This document shows positions 3,820 to 50,357 of a stretch of DNA of 64,000 nucleotides, one piece after another (within the stretch, counting starts at the first letter, position 1; each line of letters opens with the position of its first letter). Source of the DNA: a virus; the IMG/VR virus record IMGVR_UViG_3300047094_001400, positions 6,473 through 70,472 of that record. One strand, written 5' to 3'. Under the pieces are notes generated by a model that had not been told where the DNA came from, made no database searches, and saw nothing but the letters and a program-made list of their open reading frames with translations. A program made the position numbers and the translations under genes.

Positions 3820-6800
3820 ATGCCATTACCAATACACAATCAACAGAATACACAGTTAGATGTTAAGGCATTTAACAAGGGTGCTCAATACAGCATAGAG
3901 GAGCAGTTCCTTGGACAAAGTGATAGTGGTGCTTATATTGATGCAGAGAATATGCGTCCTACTGGATTGAAAGAGGATGAAATGGCTTTGCAGAGAATTG
4001 ATGGGGAGGACAAGATTTATGTGAGTGAGGATAATAGTTGCTTAAATTATTATGGTGGTACTTTTGCAAATGGAGAGTGGAGATGCTTGGGTACTATGTA
4101 TGTTAAGGACAATATAGTTGAATTGTGGTGTGATGAGAACCAAATCGAGGCTCCATTCATAAGAATTAACGGGCAGATTTGTGCAGCAAGTCCACAACTA
4201 CCTTTGGACATTGACTTTCCTGTTCAGTTCCATTGGAATAATACCTGTTTAGGTGGAGAGATTTATATTACCGACAACAATACTCCTCCTATTATCCTGA
4301 ATGTGCAGGATATGATTGATAATAGTACAGCACCTAATTGTACTGAAAAATACTTCAATGAGTTCGATAGGAGGAGATATGAAATTAATACACAGATTCC
4401 TCCACATATACTATCTTTTGTTGAATTGACTGCTAATCCTGGTTATCCAGGTGCAACGGTTTATGGTGCAGGAGGGTTAAAAGTTGGTATGTATTCCTAT
4501 TCTTTTAGGTATGTAACCAAGGATGGAGATAGAACTGCGTGGACAAATGTTACGCCTACGATACCTGTTCCGGTAAATATAAATGCAGATAGTAATCAAT
4601 ATCCGTACATAAAGACTTATGGTGCAGACCCAAGTACTCAAACAAAGTATGGAATTGTACTGAATTTCAGGGCTCAAAATGACTTGAACTTTGACTATAT
4701 TGAGATTAAGAGGTATAGTTACAATACGGGAGTTCCGGTTGGGTTTACTCCAAGTGCGGAGTTGATAGGTACTTTGTCATTGGTTGATGGGGAAAACTCA
4801 ATAAGATATATCCTTGACATAGGGGCTGTTGGGGAACCAATTACGGATGAAGAGGACACTACTACTTTTGCCCCGATTAAGGCTGCAAAAACGATAAGGT
4901 ACTTTGAGAATAGATTGTATTTGATGAATATCAAGTATGAATCTATGGACTTTACACCCTCGTTTGTTTCATATCCTCCTGCAAGTCCAAGACCCAATAT
5001 GTTTCCTGTTATGGCTCCATTGGGAACGGTTGGCTACAATGATGCCTACAATACTACCTATCACAGGAGTTATTTCCGTGGGGAGAAGTATGGTTTTGCG
5101 GTAGGATTTTGGAATAACTTAATGGGCAAAACTTTTGCTACGAAAGTTCCTAACTTTACCAATTACCAAATGCCTGAACGCAGGGATGAGGCAAGTGCAT
5201 TGACAGGAACTTTTAGTTATACTGCAAGTGGTGCTACTACTTTGCCTACTGCTGTTGTTTATTCTACAAATAGCGATGCCCCTTGCCACGAAACATATAC
5301 TCTTAGGAATGCAATAACAAAAGATGATTGCTGTTCATTTAAGAATATATCGTGTGAAGGTAATAAAGATGATTCATGTGATGCTCCACTTGGATTTAAT
5401 AATATGCCAAGTTATTGTGGTGGGTGTGGGATAGCACCTGAACCATATGACGCAAGTGATATAGGTTATCAACCTCTTACTCCCATTGGCGAATCAGACC
5501 CTAATGTATCAGGACATGACTATGTAATAAATACCCGTGTTGAGAATACTTGTACTAACCTTGGTGATTATCATCCTGCTGGGTTTGCACCTGAATACTT
5601 TGCCTTAGGAATGGCATTGAATGGTATTGATACAAGTTTATTGCCAACAAACATTCAGGCATTTTCGGTACTTAGAACAAGACCTGCAGGTAGAGTTGTA
5701 TTTCAGGGAATAGGTGGCTACTATCTTTATCCGAATCCGGGTGGTGATACCGACCCTGCATATAAGGCTGTAAACAAATTGTGGTTTTATGGGTTTGAGG
5801 GTACTTCAAGAGCAGGATTAATAAGTCAGGCAATTATCAATCAAATAGGTGCTAATGCAGGTGGGCAATATGAGGCTCAATTAGTTTCTCCTGTTGGTTT
5901 GTTTTCTGAAATTCCACACGGAGAAAATAGAACTTTTCTTGGAGGCAAAGACATTATTGATATGTGTTTGTATCCAAGATTCTACGAGGACAATGCTACA
6001 ATAAATCTTACTCCTGACCCAACAAGCACAGGTGGATATATTCAGTTTGGAAAGTGGAGGAATGCAGGTTTCCCGGGTTCAGGATGGACTACGATTCTAT
6101 CAACAAATAAAGCGAGTTTTGTTATTAACGAGTTTAGAAACGCAAATAACTCTGCTACAAATACAAGCGGTGTTGGTGCTGAGTATGTAGGTGATAGAGG
6201 GAATCAGTATTTTGTGCTTGGTACGAGCATAGATGTTTATGGTGTTCAAAGCGTTGGCTTAAATGCTTGTGATAATGCTTATGATAGTGGCGATTTAAAG
6301 TCATTTCATGAACCTTGGTACAATATCAATATTGTTGACACCTTAGCGAATGTTGCTCAGGGAGATATTACTACCTACTACGATACAGGTGCATATCAGA
6401 AACTAAAATCTTGGGTGGGCACTTACACTCCAACTTCTGCTACATTCCAACTTGCAGGGGATGAAAGATGGGAAGATGTAAGACCATATATTGCTAATAC
6501 ATATACAAATTTTTCATCGATTGATACAAACACAATAAACTCAATACTTGAAATTGAGTTGCCAAATGGCACTATTCAATATTGGTTGAATGCTGATAAT
6601 GTGTCAAATGCAAATATTGATTTAATGATTCCGTCTTTGCCTTATACAATAGGAACAAATACTCCTGGTGGTAGTAAAGATGGAGTAACTATTTCAGGTT
6701 TTTACAGAGTTTTATTTGCCTCTCCAAGAACTTTTGTAATTGTGTTTACGGCAGGCTCAACTCCAATGACCCCACAAACCGACAGCAAAATTTACATTAA

Positions 6801-43907: not shown

Positions 43908-43958
43908 TTCCGGGAGCAGGAATCGAACCTACCTGAATACCCAAATGTAATCCCGGAA
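43908..43958 (-). ncRNA. Anticodon-less tRNA-like element A
   Basis: ttccggga/tcccggaa acceptor-like stem, tac-atttgg-gta arm, T-arm gtagg-TTCGATT-cctgc. Confidence 0.7.
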
Positions 43959-45244: not shown

Positions 45245-46042
45245 TTAATTATGAATCTCAGATTTTACATTCAGTACAATACTACTAACAGGAATATTCC
45301 CCTGTATGGCTTCCCATATAAGCAATATGGAATCAATTCCGGTTTGAGCGTGTAGTTCTATCAAAACTTTTTCCGCTTGTTCTAATCCCTTTGCTGGTGA
45401 TTTTGTCGGGTTTCCTGAATTACTTTCCCGTTTGTCCTGAATCTGTGTTTTTACTTTTGCCGGAATTACTTTCCCCGTTTCTGAATCTTTTGAACTTTCG
45501 ATAATTTGTCTAAGTTCGTCCGGATTGTCTGTCCCCTTCATGGCCTGAATAACAACAGATGCACTTACTTTCCCCGTTTCTATTTCGGTTTTTATTTCGC
45601 CAGGAGCATAACTCAGGGACAAAATATCCCTTACATACTGTTCCGAATAGGTACAACGCTTGCAAATTTCGGGAATGGTTTCTCCTGCAAGTTCGAGGGA
45701 CTGAAAAACTTCCGATAATTCCAAAGGAGTTAAACTTTTGCCCGAATTCCCGTTTATCTGTAAATACAAGGAATCCGCTTCAGAAAATTCCGTTTCAGGT
45801 TTGACTAAACAAGGGACCGGAAATTCAAAGCCTTGTAAACTTAGTTCCTGCAAGGCACGGAATCGTCGGAATCCGTCACGAATGTGGAATGTGCCTTCAG
45901 GACTTTCAAAGCCTTCTAAGGGCTTAATTAGCCCGTTTATACGGATATTATCCGCAAGGTTAGAAATATCCCCATAATCCGTGCGGGAATTGATTTTCTC
46001 ATCGGATATTAAATCCGAAAAATTGAATTGTTTTACTTGCAT
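45245..46042 (-). CDS. ParB/Srx-like protein with HTH
   Basis: 'LADNIRINGLIKPL', 'IRDGFRRFRA', 'GKSLTPLE'; ATG at 46042. Confidence 0.8.
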   Translation of the reverse strand: MQVKQFNFSDLISDEKINSRTDYGDISNLADNIRINGLIKPLEGFESPEGTFHIRDGFRRFRALQELSLQGFEFPVPCLVKPETEFSEADSLYLQINGNSGKSLTPLELSEVFQSLELAGETIPEICKRCTYSEQYVRDILSLSYAPGEIKTEIETGKVSASVVIQAMKGTDNPDELRQIIESSKDSETGKVIPAKVKTQIQDKRESNSGNPTKSPAKGLEQAEKVLIELHAQTGIDSILLIWEAIQGNIPVSSIVLNVKSEIHN

Positions 46043-46046
46043 GGTT

Positions 46047-46241
46047 TTATTGGTTAAGGTAATTATTGAAAAATTCTTTTGCCGTGAATTGTGCATCCTC
46101 AAAGGTTTCATATTTCCAACCTATGCAGGTAGTATCTGAAGGTTTTCCGGTCCTCGTTTCATAGGTTCCGGATTGATTCCGGACTATGTGACAAATTATC
46201 CGGTTTTTGTGTTTGAAGGTTTGAATTACATTGTTTTGCAT
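46047..46241 (-). CDS. Hypothetical protein
   Basis: 64-aa ORF downstream of the hammerhead. Confidence 0.55.
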   Translation of the reverse strand: MQNNVIQTFKHKNRIICHIVRNQSGTYETRTGKPSDTTCIGWKYETFEDAQFTAKEFFNNYLNQ

Positions 46242-46256
46242 AATGTTTTTATTTTA

Positions 46257-46309
46257 AGTTCATACACGGTTTTACCCGTGTTTCATCCTTACGGAATCAT
46301 CAGTGAACT
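46257..46309 (-). ncRNA. Hammerhead ribozyme (type I)
   Basis: agttca-CTGATGA-ttcc-gtaa-ggat-GAAA-cacgg-gtaaaa-ccgtg-TA-tgaact: full catalytic core, three stems and a GUA cleavage triplet. Confidence 0.8.
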
Positions 46310-46312
46310 AAA

Positions 46313-46834
46313 TTAGAATCTATTCCCATTCTCATAAAATTCCCATTCATATGCCTCGCACATTTCCGAGAATCCTTCCTCAGATAATTGATATTCATAA
46401 TCCTTGCAACCTGCTGAAATTACAGAATCAACACAATAATTTAGAATTTCCTGAAGGTTTGTGTATTTGCAAGGCCTTTGAAGGAATCTGTAAATAGGTT
46501 CCATAAAATCAATATCCGCACAAAATCCCGTGAACTTGCATTCGTTTTTTAATAATTCTACATTGTACCTGTTATTAAGGTATTTGTACAACCTTACTCC
46601 GGACAATTCAGAATTATTGTGTTCCGAAATTCTTACATTCCATGAAGTATTCCCCCAGTCTATGGAATAATTTTTCAATTCAATATCAAAGTAATTTAAT
46701 GCGTATCGAATTGTTCTAAGATAGTCATCGGACCAATAAAATTCTGTTGAATAGCAATAATTGTTAAGGGCTTTTTGTTTTGCGGAATCGGATAGTTCCG
46801 AAAATTTGTAAACTGTTTTTTCAATTGTTCTCAT
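46313..46834 (-). CDS. Conserved phage early-type protein
   Basis: 'VYKFSELSDSAKQKA..YEYQLSEE..EAYEWEFYENG' pattern; ATG at 46834. Confidence 0.65.
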   Translation of the reverse strand: MRTIEKTVYKFSELSDSAKQKALNNYCYSTEFYWSDDYLRTIRYALNYFDIELKNYSIDWGNTSWNVRISEHNNSELSGVRLYKYLNNRYNVELLKNECKFTGFCADIDFMEPIYRFLQRPCKYTNLQEILNYCVDSVISAGCKDYEYQLSEEGFSEMCEAYEWEFYENGNRF

Positions 46835-46858: not shown

Positions 46859-46908
46859 TCCTGCTTCAGGGATCGAACCCGAATAATATCCCAACCACGG
46901 GAGCAGGA
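46859..46908 (-). ncRNA. Anticodon-less tRNA-like element B
   Basis: tcctgct/agcagga stem, ccc-gtggtt-ggg arm, T-arm tcggg-TTCGATC-cctga. Confidence 0.7.
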
Positions 46909-47662: not shown

Positions 47663-47711
47663 TTCCCGTTCCTGGATTCGAACCGGGCAAAGCCTCCGAC
47701 AGGCACGGGAA
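47663..47711 (-). ncRNA. Anticodon-less tRNA-like element C
   Basis: ttcccgt/acgggaa stem, gcct-gtcgg-aggc arm, T-arm cccgg-TTCGAAT-ccagg (one mismatch). Confidence 0.65.
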
Positions 47712-47719
47712 ATGGGGGG

Positions 47720-48433
47720 TTAGATAGTTCCGTAATTTACAACTTTGAAAGGTTGAAAATCCGGGACCTTCTGAGCTTCAATTTTTTCAATATCTAAAAG
47801 TGAAGCAAGGAAATTTGAACTTTCTCCTTTGGTTATCCGGACAATGTTCTGTATTTGCTCAGTGTATAGTGGCTTGAGGGCTTCAAAGTCAGAACCGGCA
47901 TACACTACCTGAGCTTTAATATCTACCTTCAAATACATAAGGATAACTAAGCAAATATCATTTATCTGCTCAGGGTTGAAATACTCCCGAAATTCATTCA
48001 TAAAATGAAGGCCGGAATTAATTTCCTCGTGACCATTAAAACCGGTTCCGATAGTTCCAACATGACCGGTATTTAAGTTCGTGTAATTAAGTAAAACGGG
48101 GGAATAGGTACTTTTTTTCTCAGCGTTTAATTTACCCGTCTTTGGGTTAATTGTTTGAAAAATTGACCGTGTGCCTTTCCCGTTCACATACTCACAGGAA
48201 AAAAACGCAGTAGTCCTGAGTCTTCCATAAGGATAAGAATCTACCTGTATTTTTTCGCCTAATTTATGCACCTGAATAGGAGTTACCTCGAATTCATAAG
48301 ATTCCGAATCTGATAAATTAAGGTGCTTTTTTGCCTTCTGGATAGCCTCTGATTCATTCAGGGCATTCAGGGCAGTTCCGCGGGATAACCAGGTTTTACC
48401 GGTTACTTTTGCATTGATTTTGTACTGATTCAT
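47720..48433 (-). CDS. Hypothetical protein
   Basis: 237-aa ORF. Confidence 0.65.
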   Translation of the reverse strand: MNQYKINAKVTGKTWLSRGTALNALNESEAIQKAKKHLNLSDSESYEFEVTPIQVHKLGEKIQVDSYPYGRLRTTAFFSCEYVNGKGTRSIFQTINPKTGKLNAEKKSTYSPVLLNYTNLNTGHVGTIGTGFNGHEEINSGLHFMNEFREYFNPEQINDICLVILMYLKVDIKAQVVYAGSDFEALKPLYTEQIQNIVRITKGESSNFLASLLDIEKIEAQKVPDFQPFKVVNYGTI

Positions 48434-48904: not shown

Positions 48905-50357
48905 AAGTTTTGAGCGTTAAATTAGATTAACGGGTACAAACCTACAAAGTTTATTTTTAATTTGTCAAGTAACATTTAACCTAAACACAAAAATATTTTT
49001 TAACTCATTGAAAACCAACACAAAAAAATTTACCTATAAGAAAAAAAAAGAATAAACCAGGACACAAAAATAAGATACAAGACAAGATACAGACACAAGG
49101 AAAAAACAGAATTAAACGGATGATTCCTACACTAAACTAAACTTAGAAAAATTTATCTGGTGAAGGTTTGAATAACGGAATAAAGGGAAGGGAAGGAAGG
49201 GATTAATAATGGGGGGGTAATTTCCCTTTATGGAATTCCAACAAAGGTCCTCACATTCCGGAATAGATCAACCAAAAATAAAGGGACCAACAAAGGAGAC
49301 CAAAGGGCAAAGGGATTAATTACATTTATCTTTTTCCGTTACATATAACTATTATTATGTTAAGTAAATTATATTTCATATTGTAACTAACTGAATAACA
49401 AAGGGATAAGCCGGAACAGGCACAAAGGGAATGTATAAAGGTATTAACCACATTATAAGTAGTGATAATCTCAGGGGCAAAGGAAGGACCGCATCCGGAC
49501 GGATTGAGACCCCCCCTTCATCGGAATTGCGCATTTCGGATTTTCGGACCGCAGGCCGGCGGGGGTGCTCGCATATAATCATACCCCAACTTTTCATTCG
49601 AGGTAAAATTTGATATTTAGTAATTAGTCTTAATGTGTGCTATCCCCAACTTTTCATGCTAATCAATTTTCAGTGTTTCGATATTTATGCTGAATTTACT
49701 TTTCACACGCAACAGAATATGTAAATCGGTTTGGATTGGATTTCTGGTTTGCGTTTCAATTAAGGTTGTGTTGTAAGTGCATGGTAGTTAAACTTCAATC
49801 AAACATTGCCCTAAGAAAGAAAACCTGATATATCGCCCCCTGCAATTGAGGGTAGGAGCATTGGAGGGTTGGGGATTGTGTTGTATTTGTAGTAGGGTGG
49901 GTCGGTAATGCGAACTGCCCGAAATTCATGGGGGAATGAAATTTAAAGCGGCTGGTTGTGGGCTGATGTTGAGTTGTGGTTGGGGTATTGTTGGTTTATG
50001 TGGTTTACAGCCCAAAAAGCGGAATGAGCGAATGTGTAGTGTGGGATGTTGTGATATTCGTGAATGTAGCGTTTGGGCGTGTTAGTTGGTTGGAAATACA
50101 GGTTGGTGCGACTGGTTTGCGGGAGGGTAGGGTAGGTGTAAAAGAAAGGATCAGCGGAATTGTTTGTTTGGTGTTTCCCTAGACTAATATAGGCTGGAAT
50201 TTTGAAAAATTAAATTGGTGGTTTTCAGTTGTTTATGTTTGTGTTTAATTTCATAACTTGCGAAAATCGGACACTTTCTGTCCGAAAAAGGGGGTTACTC
50301 TGACACTTTCTGTCCTGTTTTTTGTAACTTTGTATATTAGTTTGTACTTTTGTTTTT
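48905..50357. other. Long divergent non-coding region (possible genome termini, pac or origin)
   Basis: About 1.45 kb without credible ORFs; switches from A-rich to G/T-rich; short repeats. Confidence 0.5.
48937..48944 (-). promoter_or_regulatory. Leftward promoter -7 element (TAGGTTTG)
   Basis: TAnnTTTG match upstream of the leftward operon, with TTGAC further upstream. Confidence 0.55.

Follow-up and report, generated by a model that had tools for sequence, protein, structure and literature searches.

Does a 53-nt segment lying between two small genes of a phage operon encode a genuine self-cutting hammerhead, and what would a cut at this position do for the genes on either side? The segment belongs to a 70.5-kb virus record (IMG/VR IMGVR_UViG_3300047094_001400), of which positions 6,473 to 70,472 were analyzed as one stretch of 64,000 nt (the window, whose coordinates are used below). 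A first-pass annotation, made from the letters alone, had read the segment as a complete type I hammerhead on the coding strand, with a U-U pair at the base of stem II and a cleavage site about 20 nt before a start codon. Judged by its sequence, the element is a genuine type I hammerhead in a subfamily characterized by the U10.1-U11.1 pair and a GUA cleavage triplet. We consider it probable that the whole proposal developed here holds, namely, that a real type I hammerhead uncouples the neighboring cistrons by cutting itself.

The hammerhead occupies positions 46257..46309 of the minus strand, where the sequence reading gives 13 of 13 core nucleotides and three stems; its assignment to the type I class, as a U10.1-U11.1 variant with a GUA triplet, draws on sequence, descriptor, fold, and covariation. 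Read from 46309 to 46257, an open-ended stem I of 6 bp is formed by AGUUCA (46309-46304) and UGAACU (46262-46257) and encloses all other parts. The core strand CUGAUGA (C3-A9, 46297..46303) leads into stem II (UUCC-GUAA-GGAU, 46285..46296), a hairpin with a GUAA loop present in both sequence and fold, in which the U46296-U46285 mismatch is followed by one U-A and two C-G pairs. The core strand GAAA (G12-A15.1, 46281..46284) then leads into the stem III hairpin (CACGG-GUAAAA-CCGUG, 46265..46280), whose 5 bp (46280-46276 with 46269-46265) are supported by sequence, fold, and compensatory changes. The following UA supplies U16.1 (46264) and A17 (46263), and from these core positions the cut is predicted between 46263 (A17) and 46262 (N1.1), the same site as proposed in the annotation. 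The leader predicted to stay on the downstream RNA (UGAACUUAAAAUAAAAACAUU, 46242..46262) is 21 nt long and runs up to the ATG at 46241-46239, in agreement with the earlier estimate of about 20 nt. All other motifs and stems named in the annotation are likewise present in the sequence, including the U-U as first pair of stem II.

The nucleotides required by the core definition of Perreault et al. (2011), C3 U4 G5 A6 N7 G8 A9, G12 A13 A14 A15.1, U16.1, and H17, are all in place, and the core is surrounded by three helices backed by covariation. The pairs N1.1-N2.1 and A15.1-U16.1 are standard; the same authors' rule that no mispair should stand beside the core is broken at one position, 10.1-11.1, which is U-U. 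Stem II contains just 3 Watson-Crick pairs. By eye only, stem I may continue beyond a bulged U (UUU/AAA), and loop II looks like a GNRA-type loop; inspection by eye identified no tertiary contact between stem I and loop II of the window hammerhead. Natural hammerheads need a tertiary contact for activity at physiological Mg2+.

A type I descriptor (CUGANGA, a hairpin for stem II whose first pair may be mismatched, GAAA, a hairpin for stem III, UH, and 4 bp or more in stem I) matched the 70,472-base genome once on both strands together and gave 0 matches on 200 dinucleotide-preserving shuffles of that genome. Type II and type III descriptors found no match over the whole genome. The minimum free-energy structure of a 67-nt segment is the hammerhead fold (−15.7 kcal/mol, z = −2.64), and the same fold is the free-energy minimum inside 181 nt of native context (z = −2.51). 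The identity of the hammerhead is thus supported by the full core, the shuffle control, and the covariation in copies from other phages described below. The check suggested in the annotation, a search with the Rfam hammerhead models, returned nothing at threshold: 0 matches reached gathering scores in the whole window, and the sole match in E-value mode was a partial one to Hammerhead_3 (RF00008), at 16.1 bits against a cutoff of 48.5 (E = 0.84). Canonical copies from sister phages found their best Rfam match in RAGATH-1-hammerhead (RF03152), at 32.3 and 28.8 bits against a cutoff of 56.3. The further Rfam hammerhead models considered were RF00163, RF02276, RF02275, and RF02277. At threshold, no Rfam model covers the type I subfamily of the window (stem I AGUUMA/UKAACU, U-U, GUA).

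The hammerhead lies within a minus-strand gene row made up of small open reading frames (ORFs) without family match, a 173-aa ORF, a 64-aa ORF, a ParB_N-like gene, a 66-aa ORF, and a gene for a DNA polymerase III beta-type sliding clamp, and it separates the 173-aa from the 64-aa ORF. The upstream 173-aa ORF (46313..46834, minus strand) belongs to phrog_10310, of unknown function, and its TAA stop (46315-46313) ends 3 nt ahead of the hammerhead. The downstream 64-aa ORF (46047..46241, minus strand), also of unknown function, is 92 to 100% conserved in two sister records and had no match in Pfam, PHROG, or NCBIfam; its stop adjoins the start of the ParB_N-like gene, the next in the operon (45245..46042, minus strand, 265 aa). 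An intergenic position of this kind, on the same strand as the flanking genes of a phage genome, is the gene-flanking arrangement described by Perreault et al.

The cellular relatives of the sliding clamp are Bacteroidota. The leaders of the operon are A-rich and carry a repeated ACCUUAAAACC-like motif, and no Shine-Dalgarno sequence was found in the leaders of the operon genes, a combination that would fit a Bacteroidota host. On the minus strand, from the operon start region to the clamp gene, no convincing terminator was found (9 terminator-like sites versus 8.7 expected), and a sigma-70 promoter scan was uninformative (23 sites versus 26 expected); the gene row may plausibly be described as an early operon. 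A blastn search of GenBank phages with the 2-kb region gave no match, and the relatives found by tblastn with the clamp protein all fall below 27% identity, so the virus has no cultured close relative. A linker motif, (A)CCUUAAAACC, recurs immediately 5' of the ATGs at 48433, 47632, 47410, 47129, 46834, and 46042 (minus strand), and a 34-nt linker is common to unrelated junctions in sister phages; the recurring motif may serve as translation leader and recombination site both. At the head of the gene row, a stretch of 1.4 kb (about 48905-50350) contains no long ORFs. On the minus strand it is rich in pyrimidines and repeats CCCUUUG-like words; GAAAAGUUGGGGWAU occurs twice, at a spacing of about 60 nt. 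The stretch may be a regulatory region or an origin.

Protein-anchored searches for relatives returned 1, 2, 4, 6, and 6 loci. The identical 53-nt hammerhead is present in two further IMG/VR records (G001 and G002) and in a metagenome contig (L007). Across the four records, hammerhead and leader have 0 variable columns out of 68, versus 10 of 195 in the 64-aa ORF and 68 of 798 in the ParB gene. The same operon of sister phages also contains two canonical type I hammerheads, with G-C at 10.1-11.1 and a GUC triplet. One of them lies in G001, 1.1 kb upstream of its window-type copy, and the other is shared by the record G003 and contig L008; over 101 nt, the G003 and window copies share 75% identity. 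Among the three sister sequences, 6 of the 20 pairs are changed on both sides, and 96.4% of the alignment cells are paired, versus 21 to 50% when the partners are slid. Directly 5' of the second G001 hammerhead (L001 2386-2408), the first part of the element is doubled (GAUUCACUGA followed by UUCACUGAUGA), and this duplication looks like the scar of a slip or a recombination. The more distant relatives G004 and L061-L065 (ParB 76% identical) gave no significant hammerhead match, and G005, another distant relative, gave only a chance-level one (E = 0.82, 12.8 bits).

Passages of Perreault et al. list the U10.1-U11.1 mismatch as a natural variant and as the best-tolerated mismatch, with more activity than other mispairs (PMC3088659). 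A search of viral contigs with the U-U pattern CTGATGAT-N10-TGAAAC gave at least 121 matches (L133-L253). Among the 121 matches listed, a 3-bp stem II stands behind the U-U in 46, with about 6 expected by chance, and at least 40 are full hammerheads (37 type III and 3 type I), at least 39 of them distinct. Another pattern, designed for type I, retrieved 11 stretches (L254-L264). Model R1 aligned 23 matches, including canonical neighbors from the same loci, which reduce to 13 distinct rows; the window hammerhead scores 75.4 bits with this model, by construction. In the 13-row alignment, which was fitted to the model and includes one low-scoring antisense row and one row of 26 bits, 15 of the 20 pairs are changed on both sides and 94.2% of the cells are paired, values reached by 0 of 500 shuffles. 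That U-U might be the majority state of the subfamily (8 of the 13 rows) was dropped: the fetching patterns demanded U-U, and such counts say nothing on its share of the family. Since the pair recurs in at least 39 distinct hammerheads from viral contigs and is reported as a natural active variant, it reads as no sign of decay, even though the annotation was fair in cautioning that it may reduce activity.

The first pair of stem II goes together with position 17. In type I members, U-U is accompanied by A17 (GUA) in 6 of 6 cases and G-C by C17 (GUC) in 4 of 5, and A17 occurs in 33 of the 39 distinct U-U hammerheads among the matches listed. This link may mean either a coupling of the first stem II pair with position 17 or shared descent. 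The purine base G10.1 helps to bind a metal ion near the catalytic site, and the rate of cleavage may be low because U at 10.1 removes it. In the unrelated viral contigs L261/L262 (IMGVR_UViG_3300031612_000195) and L260, 2 to 3 type I hammerheads lie within 1.7 kb, with U-U/GUA and G-C/GUC copies mixed and each placed between ORFs. Among the 38 stretches of viral contigs that match TTCACTGATGA-N12-GAAAC, the hammerheads are the already known sister copies only. The pattern TTCACTGATGA-N12-GAAACA matched 67 stretches of genome contigs, with a single real hammerhead, of type III and from an unrelated MAG. This Paceibacterota MAG contig (L097 596-647) holds a clean type III hammerhead with GUC and a GUCC/GGAC stem II, unrelated to the phage.

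A hammerhead by descent could also be dead or too slow, its conserved hairpin cluster serving as a passive 3'-end protector or spacer. The U-U sits at what passages of Perreault et al. give as the most conserved pair of the consensus, and candidates mispaired at the core were dropped by these authors unless activity had been measured (PMC3088659). The short stem II, the lack of an identified tertiary contact, the lack of an Rfam match at threshold, and the fact that a hammerhead is dispensable at one junction of a sister phage (see below) point in the same direction. Against them stand the intact core (13/13) and the 0 of 68 variable columns in four records, versus 5 to 8.5% in the flanking genes. 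In addition, at least 39 distinct hammerheads, and 6 of 11 type I members, combine the U-U with an intact core and compensating stems, which would be unexpected of decay, and U-U is reported to be more active than any other mispair (PMC3088659, in part). We hold this reading to be unlikely and keep to a hammerhead that probably cuts.

The operon around the element is a mosaic among sister phages. In the window the order of genes is 70 aa, tRNA-like element, 173 aa, hammerhead, 64 aa, and ParB. It is DUF7659 gene, hammerhead, 103 aa, 70 aa, tRNA-like element, and ParB in G003, and 103 aa, 70 aa, tRNA-like element, RadC, hammerhead, 64 aa, and ParB in G002. In G002, a different upstream gene (RadC-like, with a JAB domain) thus abuts the same hammerhead, and the sequences become identical 7 nt before stem I. 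The 103-aa gene is preceded by a hammerhead in G003 and, in G002, by a spacer of about 105 nt instead (L060 5694-5798), in which neither a hammerhead nor an Rfam match nor a significant fold (z = +0.63) was found. The hammerhead is therefore dispensable at some junctions and not obligatory for a given downstream gene. The window genome itself holds one copy, not several close together around single genes, and with only one hammerhead it has no general processing system of this kind; clustered hammerheads occur elsewhere, in G001 (2 copies, 1.1 kb apart) and L261 (3 matches).

The 5' flank and core CUAAUUUAGUUCACUGAUGA has a stop codon in every reading frame (window 46316-46297, minus strand; L002 1488-1507; L012 1790-1809), and three different upstream genes end at this block, with UAA in the window, UAG in G002 (RadC-like), and UGA inside the core in G003 (DUF7659). 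The block could accordingly act at the level of DNA, as a portable junction cassette whose three-frame stops let any upstream gene recombine in front of the 64-aa gene, cleavage being incidental. The mosaic operon, the RadC-like gene that abuts the same hammerhead with identity from 7 nt before stem I, and the use of all three stops are what such a cassette would produce. Simple linkers free of any ribozyme, however, act as junctions elsewhere in the same operon, and A+T-rich spacers commonly contain stops in all frames. The cassette also leaves unexplained why the catalytic core and three compensating helices have been kept. It is a distinctly unlikely substitute for a self-cutting element.

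The placement of the hammerhead between genes is shared more widely. A layout scan covered 10 sources, 8 of which held type I members, 11 distinct ones in total, and the U-U state is found in 6 of the 11. Each of the 11 has the stop of a long upstream ORF between −9 and +15 from the hammerhead start, and an ATG that opens 46 to 244 codons follows the cleavage site after 19 to 32 nt. The leaders in the window's own clade measure 21, 22, and 23 nt.

With self-cutting as the preferred reading, this layout suggests the following course of events. A polycistronic minus-strand message would carry small accessory genes, the ParB-like protein, and the sliding clamp together with the hammerhead, and the folded RNA would cut itself after A46263. 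Because of the type I topology, nearly all of the ribozyme would remain on the upstream RNA, which would end in the stem III hairpin and a 2',3'-cyclic phosphate, just past the stop of the 173-aa ORF. The downstream RNA would begin with a 5'-OH and a short, unstructured, A-rich leader of 21 nt before the ATG of the 64-aa ORF. The cut would decouple the two cistrons in stability and in translation-initiation context, and the downstream gene would obtain a standard leader whichever gene stands upstream, as would suit an operon reshuffled among sister phages. In other slots of the operon, half-tRNA elements would serve the same purpose by way of host tRNA-processing enzymes. Cleavage in vivo, its rate, and its effects on stability and translation are predicted here from the RNA that the DNA would encode.

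The close spacing of stop and ribozyme could instead make cleavage conditional. Terminating ribosomes would unfold stem I and the core, so that the cut occurs only when the upstream gene is poorly translated, and the U-U/A17 combination may tune rate or ion dependence. The stops of all 11 type I members (−9 to +15) are within the reach of a terminating ribosome. The association of U-U with A17 (6/6, and 33/39 among the matches listed) and of G-C with C17 (4/5) would accord with such tuning, and regulated cutting was suggested for slower phage variants in passages of Perreault et al. (PMC3088659). The argument is purely inferential, however, and the U-U/A17 link may reflect nothing but shared descent; we regard conditional cleavage as very unlikely. 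That the window element is a chance match to the hammerhead consensus, as its short core motifs and the missing Rfam match could suggest, has virtually no probability left, since none of the 200 shuffled genomes gave a match and homologous copies carry compensatory changes.

The first-pass annotation had also placed the hammerhead in the same kind of intergenic slot as several tRNA mimics and had proposed that both do the same job. The mimics are real: three intergenic elements on the same strand as the hammerhead have stems that covary in relatives. One (47663..47711, minus strand) precedes the ATG of a 65-aa gene by 30 nt. Another (46859..46908, minus strand), with the T-loop UUCGAUC followed by G-CUA, precedes that of the 173-aa gene by 23 nt. 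The last (43909..43957, minus strand) follows the sliding-clamp gene, with 21 nt left to the next ATG, and its acceptor stem covaries. Each element is about 50 nt long and combines an acceptor-like stem of 7 bp with a small hairpin and a T arm whose loop reads UUCGANY, and N-CUA comes directly after it; in relatives the acceptor stems covary among GGGA/UCCC, GGAA/UUCC, and GGAU/AUCC. ARAGORN called no tRNA in the window, and Rfam calls none of the three elements; an identification as ordinary tRNA genes was rejected on the ARAGORN result. The elements are probably substrates of host tRNA-processing enzymes. A more distant relative contains a tRNA-like sequence of full size, with a long extra arm (L061 16809-16719, minus strand).

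The best support obtained for the idea of a common job comes from geometry. Measured up to the next ATG, beginning with the base that follows the acceptor stem, the tRNA-like elements leave 30, 23, and 21 nt, and again 21 nt before ParB in G003; the window hammerhead leaves 21 nt, and the 21- and 23-nt leaders match the 21 to 23 nt left by hammerheads in its clade. The idea stays at the level of inference. No swap of a hammerhead for a tRNA-like element at one and the same junction was found in the sister phages, and a strict scan for tRNA-like elements detected none within 1.5 kb of the type I hammerheads in the unrelated contigs L254-L264. No paper that pairs hammerheads with tRNA-like elements in phage operons was found in a search of mainly open literature, and one may still exist elsewhere. 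In tRNA punctuation and in the t-elements of plant mitochondria, mRNA ends are defined by tRNA-shaped folds that stand between cistrons and are cut by tRNA-processing enzymes. The three half-tRNA elements fit this scheme; the hammerhead occupies an equivalent slot but needs no host enzyme.

A wider proposal, advanced here as a tentative possibility, is that mosaic phage operons use hammerheads and half-tRNA folds interchangeably, as punctuation cassettes. Set flush against the upstream stop, they would leave a leader of about 21 to 23 nt with a defined 5' end and so free the expression of each gene from the gene upstream. The U10.1-U11.1 pair with A17 would then be a distinct, selected catalytic flavor, slower or with another ion or condition dependence, and not a defect.

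Gene-flanking hammerheads have been known from phage operons since 2011, and the role proposed for them in passages of that work is the cutting of long phage transcripts into gene-length mRNAs (Perreault et al., PMC3088659). The window element resembles the phage and prophage hammerheads of these passages in its intergenic position in a same-strand operon and in flanking single genes or short blocks of inconstant identity; U10.1-U11.1 is among their natural variants, and the G001 pair 1.1 kb apart is a further likeness. Unlike them, it is a single copy in the window, and a leader of 19 to 32 nt and the co-occurrence with half-tRNA elements do not appear in the passages concerned with phage and prophage hammerheads (PMC3088659). 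HHphage of the haloviruses HF1 and HF2 likewise lies in an early polycistronic phage transcript, 13 nt before a start codon, and a mapped 5' end falls within 3 nt of its cleavage site. As described in the same source in part, however, HHphage differs from the window element in belonging to an archaeal virus, in being a high-salt variant with another core and stem architecture, and in standing at a transcript start, not between cistrons (PMC3088659).

The RAGATH-1 hammerhead (RF03152), the best Rfam match of the canonical sister copies, shares the type I topology and occurs in bacterial and phage-like contexts. Its model differs in a nearly absent stem II and in an upstream hairpin that is missing from the sister copies, and the window copy does not match it at all. 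The RAGATH-1 hammerhead reportedly comes from a paper by Weinberg et al. in 2017. RiboJ is a synthetic ribozyme insulator, an engineered part. Type I hammerheads in the 5' untranslated regions (UTRs) of RNA viruses enable translation initiation, according to passages of Lopez-Galiano et al. (2026, PMC13725137). In these hammerheads, as in RiboJ and as predicted for the window element, a self-cut just before an ORF sets a defined 5' end and sets or frees downstream translation. The 5' UTR hammerheads in those passages (PMC13725137) belong to eukaryotic RNA viruses with cap-independent translation, whereas RiboJ is engineered, and neither stands in the operon of a DNA phage.

As read here, the window element adds a member, not a new kind, to the phage hammerheads, failing only the rule against a mispair at 10.1-11.1 and the Rfam cutoffs, and the supplements of Perreault et al. 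(alignments, Figure S6) may already contain its subfamily. The role of prokaryotic hammerheads is still listed as open in a passage of de la Pena et al. (2017, PMC6155905). The locus offers a natural test case for that role: a putative self-cutting RNA and tRNA look-alikes that would depend on host enzymes stand in one operon with leaders of the same length. At junctions that are otherwise similar, the sister phages vary in whether an element is present and in its type, and in them the U-U/A17 variant can be compared with canonical G-C/C17 copies.
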